From: a virus
Lineage: Duplodnaviria > Heunggongvirae > Uroviricota > Caudoviricetes
DNA: 22,753 bases
IMG/VR virus record: IMGVR_UViG_2526164651_000008
Span: 1 to 22,753 of that record
Direction: 5' to 3' (one strand)
Position 1 is the stretch's first letter. The number at the start of each line of letters is the position of its first letter. The translations under genes were made by a program, and so were the position numbers. Positions 18,290 to 18,600 of the stretch are shown piece by piece. Under the pieces are notes generated by a model. The model saw nothing but the letters and a program-made list of their open reading frames with translations, was not told the origin of the DNA and ran no database searches.

Positions 18290-18366
18290 GGCCCTTTAGC
18301 TCAGTTGGTCAGAGCGAGCGACTCATAATCGCCAGGTCGCTGGTTCAAGTCCAGCAAGGGCCACCA
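18290..18366 (+). tRNA. tRNA-Ile2 (anticodon CAT, ileX/ileZ-like; reads AUA after lysidine modification)
   Basis: GGCCCTTTAGCTCAG...CGACTCATAATCG...GGTTCAAGTCCAGCAAGGGCCACCA. Cloverleaf with U8, GCTC/GAGC D stem, CTCATAA anticodon loop, TTCAAGT T loop and encoded CCA. Very similar to E. coli ileX as I recall it. Confidence 0.85.
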
Positions 18367-18367
18367 A

Positions 18368-18444
18368 CCACCACTAGCTCATCCGGATAGAGCATCAACC
18401 TTCTAAGTTGACGGTGCGAGGTTCGAGTCCTCGGTGGTGGGCCA
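18368..18444 (+). tRNA. tRNA-Arg (anticodon TCT, reads AGA)
   Basis: CCACCACTAGCTCATCCGGATAGAGCATCAACCTTCTAAGTTGACGGTGCGAGGTTCGAGTCCTCGGTGGTGGGCCA: 7-bp acceptor stem, anticodon loop CTTCTAA, T loop TTCGAGT, encoded CCA. It starts 1 nt after the previous tRNA. Confidence 0.85.
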
Positions 18445-18446
18445 GC

Positions 18447-18522
18447 GCCGACTTAGCTCAGCAGGCAGAGCAACTGACTTGTAATCAGTAGGTCACCAGT
18501 TCGATTCCGGTAGTCGGCACCA
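18447..18522 (+). tRNA. tRNA-Thr (anticodon TGT)
   Basis: GCCGACTTAGCTCAGCAGGCAGAGCAACTGACTTGTAATCAGTAGGTCACCAGTTCGATTCCGGTAGTCGGCACCA: perfect 7-bp acceptor stem, 5-bp anticodon stem ACTGA/TCAGT, loop CTTGTAA, T stem with one A-C mismatch. Confidence 0.75.
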
Positions 18523-18525
18523 TAT

Positions 18526-18600
18526 GCGGGCATCGTATAATGGCTATTACCTCAGCCTTCCAAGCTGATGATGCGGGTTCGATTCCCGCTGCCCGCTCCA
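18526..18600 (+). tRNA. tRNA-Gly (anticodon TCC), glyT-like
   Basis: GCGGGCATCGTATAATGGCTATTACCTCAGCCTTCCAAGCTGATGATGCGGGTTCGATTCCCGCTGCCCGCTCCA; anticodon loop CTTCCAA. It matches E. coli glyT as far as I can recall. Confidence 0.85.

Follow-up and report, generated by a model that had tools for sequence, protein, structure and literature searches.

Why should what appears to be a decayed prophage carry a tight array of four well-formed tRNA genes, and which genes would these tRNAs serve? The question is raised by a viral DNA stretch of 22,753 nucleotides (nt) from IMG/VR record IMGVR_UViG_2526164651_000008 (positions 1 to 22,753), which was analysed at its full length and is called the window below. 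At positions 18290-18600 of the window, genes for tRNA-Ile2, tRNA-Arg, tRNA-Thr and tRNA-Gly follow the gene of the late antiterminator Q. From its ipaH gene, MxiE box, CssrB RNA, IS600 and ISSfl2 insertion sequences (IS) and its relatives in S. flexneri, we infer that the element is a decayed prophage of Shigella type. A previous reading of the same letters, made without database searches (the sequence-only reading), had proposed that the prophage may supply tRNAs that favour translation of its own cargo, with ipaH and a methyltransferase gene named. The underlying observation was confirmed and the interpretation was partly supported, being right in kind but too narrow. The array is an ordinary, widespread tRNA module of lambdoid prophages that is already known and annotated in RefSeq. 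Its function is probably to supplement the dosage of four minor tRNAs for codons ending in A, with transcription by read-through from pR' or from a promoter of its own and, in the present case, with any benefit going to the host.

Identity of the tRNA genes

ARAGORN called four tRNA genes in total in the 22.7-kb window, all on the plus strand, and each of them passed the Rfam model RF00005 far above its gathering score of 29 bits (E-values 8e-14 to 6e-10; Table 1). The anticodons CAT (Ile2), TCT, TGT and TCC that had been read from the letters at 18290-18600 were thereby confirmed. The same holds for the close packing of the genes behind Q and a terminator-like hairpin, with spacers of 1, 2 and 3 nt between the tRNA genes, a Q product that matches its Pfam family, and an array start 176 nt downstream of the end of Q with the hairpin (18183-18203) in between. 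The CCA end is encoded in each of the four genes. The cloverleaf of the array tRNAs is canonical, with a 7-nt anticodon loop, U33, G18-G19 and a TTCGA or TTCAA T-loop, and tRNA-Arg(TCT) has A20 and C35. The genes are referred to below as slots 1 to 4, in the order of the array.

TilS separates tRNA-Ile2 from tRNA-Met by means of the acceptor pairs C4-G69 and C5-G68. Both pairs are present in the acceptor stem of the CAT tRNA (GGCCCTT/AAGGGCC), whereas metT has U4-A69 and A5-U68. Judged from this stem and from its identities of 92% with ileY, 90% with ileX and 96% with ileZ of a Shiga toxin (Stx) 2 phage, as opposed to 69% with metT and metU, the gene with anticodon CAT encodes an Ile2-type tRNA and not a tRNA-Met. 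An assignment as elongator or initiator tRNA-Met was ruled out on the same identities, and identical copies of the gene are labelled tRNA-Ile by PGAP. Its C34 is expected to be converted to lysidine, which would allow the reading of AUA.

Distribution and layout of the array

Genomes and IMG/VR were searched for the slot-2 tRNA with a degenerate pattern. Among 185,579 species genomes, matches were confined to the representatives of E. coli and S. flexneri, with three copies each, and the S. flexneri representative genome contains three arrays. In IMG/VR, the pattern was present at a minimum of 119 loci. Array types were compared in a sample of 126 matches from 125 loci (species representatives and the IMG/VR matches listed), and the counts of alleles and layouts given below apply among the matches listed. 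The layout Ile-Lys(TTT)-Thr-Gly was represented by 65 complete loci and a few truncated ones, Ile-Arg(TCT)-Thr-Gly by 37 loci, and Ile-Arg(TCT) as well as the Stx type, Ile-Arg(TCG)-Arg(TCT), by 6 loci each. The pair of Thr and glyT-like genes, which had been regarded as an unusual addition to the Ile-Arg-Arg arrangement, is therefore common: Ile-X-Thr-Gly is the majority layout in the sample (65 + 37 versus 6 loci of Stx type), and the Stx-type Ile-Arg-Arg is a minority. The Arg allele of the window recurs identically in 38 of the 126 matches, and its Thr allele is common to 37 loci. In RefSeq, at least 80% of the 311-nt array was found in 603 of 5,426 complete E. coli genomes, and a 100% identical array, annotated as tRNA-Ile/Arg/Thr/Gly, in 9 E. 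coli genomes. tRNA genes located after Q in lambdoid phages were described long since.

The position of the array resembles that of ileZ-argN-argO in Stx phages, as had been noted from the letters. In phage Nil2 (AJ413274; 933W type), Q is followed by tR', Ile, Arg, Arg and stx2A, with the array at the same position as in the window; slots 1 and 2 are 96% and 83% identical to their Nil2 counterparts and aligned in register, and upstream of the array, conservation includes the TATTAT hexamer and most of the 20 nt next to the first tRNA gene. The two slot-2 genes differ in their anticodons (TCT in the window, TCG in the Stx phage) and in the T stem, which is perfect in the window and contains an A:C mismatch in the Stx phage (56.4 versus 43.0 Rfam bits). 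The window also lacks argO, an Arg(TCT) gene with a distinct body, has copies of thrU and glyT instead, and has no stx genes downstream. It thus represents a sister layout, Ile-X-Thr-Gly, rather than the ileZ-argN-argO type. The Ile-Lys(TTT)-Thr-Gly prophages of E. coli (for example strain CE0026f and phage vB_EcoS-689R5) share with the window the four slots, the spacing, the Thr and Gly genes and an upstream Q family of about 90% DNA identity. The PPompW prophages, related to the Lys-type array, are annotated with Ile and Lys.

All 311 nt of the array are identical in E. coli strain CFSAN029787 (NZ_CP011416), one of the nine genomes with the identical array, where PGAP lists tRNA-Ile, -Arg, -Thr and -Gly. 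The CFSAN029787 prophage is apparently intact and encodes a different Q of 126 amino acids (aa), followed by the array, a holin starting 293 nt after tRNA-Gly, lysozyme, terminase, portal and capsid. In the window, by contrast, the genes from lysis to head are gone, and an ISSfl2-like element follows the array. Phage SfI also has tRNA genes between Q and the lysis cassette, as in the window, but two genes instead of four and with unrelated bodies. The Thr gene of SfI is very divergent from thrU, lacks U39 and has C at position 14, at which A is near-universal in tRNAs. For this pair, the authors of the SfI study proposed codon compensation on the basis of a bias for ACA.

The Q protein of the window was found, as an exact match, in at least 24 public contigs, with the tRNA array behind it in every case. 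The window Q and the Q genes of the sampled relatives, which precede Lys-type arrays, reach only about 90% identity; from position 18193 on, the window is 98.8% identical to Arg-type array loci that stand behind other upstream genes. This step in identity places a recombination joint near tR' in the window. By these comparisons, lambdoid phages exchange the array by recombination as a portable module.

Origin and variation of the individual genes

Each array gene was aligned with the chromosomal tRNA genes of E. coli K-12, since a comparison with ileX, argU, thrU and glyT had been suggested as a way to decide between phage and host origin. It set Gly and Thr apart as host copies and Arg as a member of a phage lineage, and placed Ile2 at 90-92% identity to ileX and ileY. 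The array accordingly reads as a mosaic of two phage-lineage genes and two near-exact copies of host genes. The Arg body, C16/C20 in Thr and an extra U in the D-loop of Ile2 set the prophage alleles apart. Alignment of tRNA-Arg(TCT) was in register with Nil2 argN (TCG; 83% identity) and with the Lys(TTT) allele from the same slot of an E. coli prophage (86%), and the identity to argU was 73%. On this evidence it is a phage-lineage gene, homologous to argN with an altered anticodon. Orthology to argO or argU was ruled out, as argO was outside the seven best matches (at most 63%) and argU remained behind the in-register match to argN. The Thr gene is identical to K-12 thrU at 74 of 76 positions (97%), the sole differences being U16C and U20C in the D-loop (window positions 18462 and 18466), and the Gly gene is identical to glyT at all 75 positions. 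No host flanks of the thrU-tyrU-glyT operon were found around Thr and Gly, the match being confined to the mature tRNAs, and the Thr/Gly spacers of 2-3 nt compare with 8 and 116 nt in K-12. The host thrU form (U16, U20) is present in 54 of 94 slot-3 copies listed, mostly of Lys type by array counts, as opposed to C16/C20 in the window.

Slot 2 is occupied by a single tRNA lineage with three anticodons: TCT in the window, TTT, and TCG in argN of Stx phages. The TTT form (locus L001, 3986-4062, and about 74 other loci such as L011 and L014) is labelled tRNA-Lys by PGAP. Unlike the window allele, it has the anticodon loop CCTTTAA with C33, an A:C mismatch in the T stem and U (T in the gene) as discriminator, and it reaches 44.4 Rfam bits (window allele: 56.4). 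L084 (IMG/VR 2645727676_000004) and the E. coli matches H66 (NZ_CP025842) and H67 (NZ_CP127034) have a variant of the array, Ile-Arg(TCT)-Lys(TTT)-Gly, where slot 3 is a thrU body whose anticodon has changed from TGT to TTT. As TTT is found both on the slot-2 body and on the thrU body, the UUU anticodon arose on two bodies in the array family.

The alleles in the individual slots are few. Slot 1 has two main alleles, whose differences are restricted to the D-loop and one base of the T-loop; the alleles of slot 3 vary at positions 16 and 20 only, and those of slot 4 show a compensatory change from C6-G67 to U6-A67. In the slot-2/Arg family, 98% of the cells of the stem alignment were paired, versus 29-54% when the 3' partners were slid; nine pairs were changed on both sides, with most of these double changes due to the single argU sequence included, and a compensatory change from G3-C70 to A3-U70 was present among the phage-lineage slot-2 tRNAs. 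Few alleles and changes that are restricted to loops or compensated in stems indicate that the array tRNAs are under purifying selection and look like functional tRNAs.

Expression signals around the array

The stretch between the tR'-like terminator and the array contains a sigma-70-type promoter candidate. At positions 18252-18289, TTGCAG is followed by 17 nt, TATTAT and then TCTGCCTCC, 9 G+C-rich nt that extend to tRNA-Ile2. The motif TTGCAx-N17-TATTAT-N9 is found at a constant distance from the first tRNA in most of the otherwise dissimilar upstream classes (about 120 loci among the matches listed); one further class has TTGATT, and two minority classes, including that of arrays consisting of Ile-Arg(TCT) only, are without the motif. 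This conservation points to a sigma-70 promoter of the array's own, with a G+C-rich discriminator, which would permit expression in the absence of Q and would be of importance in a prophage whose early region is lost. Transcription from it is predicted to start about 2-4 nt ahead of 18290. A second candidate, overlapping the end of Q (18097-18125), may be the counterpart of pR' by its lambdoid position.

Downstream of the array, the window continues with 672 nt that are conserved among Arg-type loci. A 71-aa open reading frame in this stretch (18645-18860) had no Pfam match, and the similarity to prophage L001 is weak (73% over 196 nt). Terminator-like hairpins were seen at 18859-18878, 19014-19031 and 19213-19239. 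The stretch (18601-19272) has the position of stx in Stx phages.

Codon usage

Codon frequencies were compared with a baseline of 40 K-12 core genes from a single 50-kb region (15,080 codons), in which ATA, AGA, ACA and GGA amount to 2.8, 1.1, 5.5 and 6.9 per 1000, respectively. Of the 19 Ile codons of ipaH, 8 are ATA, and of its 36 Arg codons, 9 are AGA (14.6 and 16.5 per 1000); in the half encoding the leucine-rich repeats (LRR), 6 of the 14 Ile codons are ATA and 7 of the 14 Arg codons are AGA. The two codons cluster at codons 168-222 (window 2176-2338), with ATA-AGA-ATA at codons 185-187, which agrees with the position of around 2160-2340 that had been pointed out. The methyltransferase gene uses ATA for 4 of 12 Ile, ACA for 8 of 15 Thr and GGA for 7 of 19 Gly codons, but AGA for 0 of 4 Arg codons, so that the proposed recurrence of AUA and AGA in the cargo held for ipaH and failed for AGA in the methyltransferase. 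The tail module is likewise enriched in ATA, AGA, ACA and GGA, and the same enrichment is present in Q and FI/FII. The idea that the tRNAs fit the cargo is thus borne out insofar as the element over-uses the cognate codons; their over-use is not specific to ipaH and the methyltransferase.

All 61 sense codons were then ranked by enrichment over the K-12 baseline, and the four cognate codons were assessed with a rank-sum test. In the intact CFSAN029787 prophage (37 genes), AGA ranked 1, ATA 3, ACA 5 and GGA 6 (P ~1e-5); in the prophage genes of the window, AGA ranked 2, ATA 5, ACA 4 and GGA 8 (P = 1.5e-4); and in the ipa-mxi-spa region of pCP301 (35 genes, 34% G+C), AGA ranked 1, ATA 2, ACA 7 and GGA 12 (P = 3e-4). 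AGG, which is also read by tRNA-Arg(UCU), ranked 2, 1 and 3 in the three sets, in the same order. Per 1000 codons, the pCP301 entry region contains 34.1 ATA, 17.6 AGA, 21.6 ACA and 14.9 GGA. The tRNAs of the array fit the codon bias found throughout the phage and in AT-rich acquired DNA in general, and it is pINV, rather than a single ipaH gene, that makes the largest demand in Shigella. An enrichment of pINV genes in AGA, AGG, GGA and AUA has been reported (PMC12283395), and in S. flexneri, virulence proteins are translated less when U34 of tRNA-Arg(UCU) and tRNA-Gly(UCC) is no longer modified by MnmE/G (PMC12283395). Prophage tRNA genes are not mentioned in this 2025 study (PMC12283395).

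Prophage context

The features of the window are listed in Table 1. Window positions 11424-22753 are 100% identical to AFGY01000037.1 (GCA_000213735.2). Three un-inverted relatives with the same Q protein (L135, L137, L139) have the order IS600, rusA, Q, tRNAs, ISSfl2, FI, FII, Z, U, V, G, T, H, which indicates that the tail/ipaH half of the window was inverted across IS600 copies. The breakpoints of the inversion are at 15665 and 21733, IS600 sequence bounds it, and part of Z as well as U and V were lost. Aligned with these relatives, the Q-tRNA and tail-ipaH parts are one defective prophage. In the order before the inversion, as seen in the un-inverted relatives, ipaH and the late operon are on opposite strands.

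The window, L135, L137 and L139 all lack the genes for lysis, terminase, portal and head. The transposase of the ISSfl2-like element is identical to the 'ISSfl2 ORF' (open reading frame) of pCP301 at 393 of 399 translated positions (398 residues and the stop; 98.5% aa identity), and the match between the window and loci without this element ends at 19272. To the right of the element, the order is FI, FII, truncated Z and more IS sequence, and the relative L050 keeps lysozyme and Rz where the window lacks the genes from lysis to head. Their absence beside the ISSfl2-like element and their retention in L050 suggest an IS-adjacent deletion. The array was also considered as an integration target for mobile elements, but the sole nearby insertion (ISSfl2-like) is 672 nt downstream and outside the tRNA genes.

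The MxiE box is located 119 nt upstream of ipaH. A perfect box at this place indicates that ipaH is under the control of type III secretion activity, not of Q. The box also overlaps the 5' end of CssrB on the opposite strand, so that this small RNA and the promoter region of ipaH share sequence.

Table 1. Features of the 22,753-nt window in order of position.
Feature	Position	Strand	Evidence and remarks
DinI-like gene	1-249		Pfam
IS009 (RF02111), between DinI-like gene and methyltransferase	408-611	-	Rfam, 129 bits (gathering score 117)
SAM-dependent methyltransferase	691-1359	+	Pfam Methyltransf_12, _23, _25
CssrB ('Chromosome-encoded Shigella sRNA B')	1368-1547	-	Rfam, 230 bits
MxiE box GTATCGTTTTTTTACAG upstream of ipaH	1540-1556	+	0 mismatches to consensus; chance expectation 0.08
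ipaH (LRR and NEL E3 ligase)	1675-3318	+	Pfam NEL (E = 6e-77), LRR_TTSS
Lambda-like tail module: tail-fibre assembly, tail fibre, lom, J (2 pieces), I, K, L, tape measure (3), T, G	3498-15680	-	Pfam
IS600-type element	15708-16864		Pfam scan map
rusA pseudogene, upstream of Q	17068-17427	+	In-frame stop at codon 45
Q late antiterminator, 229 aa, intact	17424-18113	+	Pfam PF06323 Phage_antiter_Q, E = 1.6e-89
pR'-like promoter candidate, TTGCAA-17-TATATT, overlaps end of Q	18097-18125	+	Consensus scan, 9/12 matches
tR'-like intrinsic terminator, GC hairpin and 7 T	18183-18203	+	Terminator scan; matches annotated 'tR' late terminator' in Nil2
Sigma-70-type promoter candidate, TTGCAG-17-TATTAT	18252-18280	+	Consensus scan and footprint
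tRNA-Ile2 type, anticodon CAT, AUA reader	18290-18366	+	ARAGORN; Rfam RF00005, 70.5 bits
tRNA-Arg, anticodon TCT, AGA reader (AGG via wobble)	18368-18444	+	ARAGORN; Rfam, 56.4 bits
tRNA-Thr, anticodon TGT, ACA and ACG reader	18447-18522	+	ARAGORN; Rfam, 69.8 bits
tRNA-Gly, anticodon TCC, GGA and GGG reader	18526-18600	+	ARAGORN; Rfam, 64.9 bits
Conserved stretch, no recognised gene	18601-19272	+	98-99% identical in many Arg-type array loci, among the matches listed
IS110-family IS (ISSfl2-like), right end approximate	19273-20723	-	Pfam DEDD_Tnp_IS110, Transposase_20
IS600-type fragment	21777-22001		

Explanations for the array

From the observed genes, homologies, distribution, codon statistics and promoter-motif conservation, we infer expression, processing, lysidine modification and an effect on translation as follows. 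A compact four-tRNA operon between Q/pR'/tR' and the lysis genes is a standard accessory module of lambdoid phages. It would raise the supply of tRNAs for AUA, AGA (and AGG), ACA and GGA, codons that are over-used by A+T-richer mobile DNA relative to the core genes of the host. In an intact phage, transcription may occur both by Q-antiterminated read-through from pR' and from the array's own sigma-70-type promoter, and the latter may also permit expression from a silent or defective prophage. RNase P would cut the 5' end of each tRNA in the precursor, and the trailers of 1-3 nt would be trimmed to the encoded CCA. Since the prophage of the window is defective, any present benefit would go to the bacterium. 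The additional copies of Ile2, Arg(UCU), Thr(UGU) and Gly(UCC) may help the translation of AT-rich acquired genes including ipaH, of which the type III secretion genes of pINV would be the main users in quantity.

Several points weigh against this explanation. The promoter is predicted from a consensus match and a phylogenetic footprint, and a strong constitutive promoter at this place would be awkward in Stx phages, which have stx2 just downstream. A-ending codons rise generically in A+T-richer DNA, so that their match to the array is no independent evidence of selection for these four tRNAs, and the codon baseline rests on 40 core genes of one 50-kb K-12 region. The Gly gene, being identical to host glyT, adds dosage only. 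A 311-nt target would also be expected to survive in a decaying prophage by chance. Finally, there is damage in some sister copies of Shigella type, where tRNA-Thr has lost 1 nt of its 3' acceptor strand (L013, 4173-4246; L015, 6256-6329) or tRNA-Arg has U8C (L135, near 6950), and this argues against strong selection on every copy.

In a first alternative, the array was functional in the ancestral phage, is of no use in its present place and is intact because it is a small target and the decay is recent. The heavy degradation of the prophage (the rusA stop, a broken tape measure and J, the loss from lysis to head and the IS-bounded inversion) is in keeping with such a neutral relic, as are the damaging mutations in the sister arrays of other Shigella genomes. 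However, the array apparently has a conserved promoter of its own that is independent of the lost early region, and three arrays persist in the representative genome of S. flexneri. Moreover, the cognate codons are those most over-used by the virulence genes of pINV, and experiments found the translation of these genes to be sensitive to how tRNA-Arg(UCU) and tRNA-Gly(UCC) decode (PMC12283395). We consider a neutral relic rather unlikely.

A second alternative is counter-defence, in which some or all of the array tRNAs replace host tRNAs that are cut by anti-phage tRNases, or act as decoys for them. The tRNase AriB of the PARIS system targets the tRNAs for Lys(UUU), Thr(UGU) and Asn(GUU) and cleaves at U36AAUC|A41; in E. 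coli tRNA-Lys, U39A abolishes cleavage and U16C ('Mut3') significantly impairs it (PMC12409363). The tRNA-Thr(TGT) of the window belongs to one of these target species (PMC12409363), and it differs from thrU solely by U16C, the change that impairs AriB on tRNA-Lys, and U20C. If read as counter-defence genes, it would be a partly resistant thrU, and the sibling slot-2 Lys(UUU) on an Arg body would be a resistant tRNA-Lys. The latter has UAAGUU at positions 36-41 and thus no AriB motif, in addition to C16 and C33; a TTT anticodon has arisen on two different bodies in the array family; and the Asn and Thr tRNAs of phage SfI (L145, 1239-1394), which also lie downstream of Q, are without U39. Phage T5 offers a precedent, as it neutralises PARIS by tRNA-Lys, -Thr and -Asn (PMC11464382, PMC12409363), of which tRNA-Thr(UGU) is also present in the window, and the C16 in the D-loop of the window Thr is shared with T5 tRNA-Lys, in which U16 is changed to C (PMC12409363). 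On the other hand, the T5 variants are altered at the AriB site (UAAGCA in Thr, UAAACC in Lys), whereas the window Thr has UAAUCA, that is, the full UAAUC|A cleavage site as in thrU. The measurements with U16C were made on tRNA-Lys and not on tRNA-Thr, and as few tRNA positions are less constrained than D-loop positions 16 and 20, two substitutions there could be neutral. In addition, Gly is identical to the host gene, and Ile2, Arg(UCU) and Gly(UCC) were not among the targets of AriB in that study (PMC12409363); the Lys(TTT) on the thrU body in L084 keeps U16 and the cleavage site; and there is no tRNase gene in the window. Counter-defence is quite unlikely as the role of the array and may be treated as a lead, not a finding. 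We regard it as similarly improbable that the post-Q module of lambdoid phages combines codon supply with a possible counter-defence against tRNases such as PARIS AriB.

That the tRNAs were acquired or kept for the translation of the prophage's own ipaH and methyltransferase genes, as the codon counts of the LRR half of ipaH and its dense cluster might suggest, is very unlikely, given that a 100% identical array resides in an intact E. coli prophage with a different Q and a holin behind it and 603 E. coli genomes have 80% or more of the array, that the enrichment is shared by tail genes, Q and FI/FII and the methyltransferase is without AGA, that ipaH has its own MxiE box and is outside the late transcription unit, and that one gene of 547 codons contributes very little to the demand next to pINV; the sample also suggests that most arrays are in prophages without ipaH.

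Implications

Dosage supplementation of minor tRNAs by the array would connect lambdoid prophages with pINV. S. flexneri has up to three prophage-borne extra copies of the genes for tRNA-Arg(UCU) and tRNA-Gly(UCC), which may bear on the translation of its virulence proteins. It also raises the question of whether decayed prophages are kept for their tRNAs. A further link leads to anti-phage tRNases, as the anticodon has switched on a constant body in the array family, whose changes in the D-loop and anticodon stem coincide with published determinants of AriB. The tRNAs of temperate phages thereby become testable as counter-defence genes.

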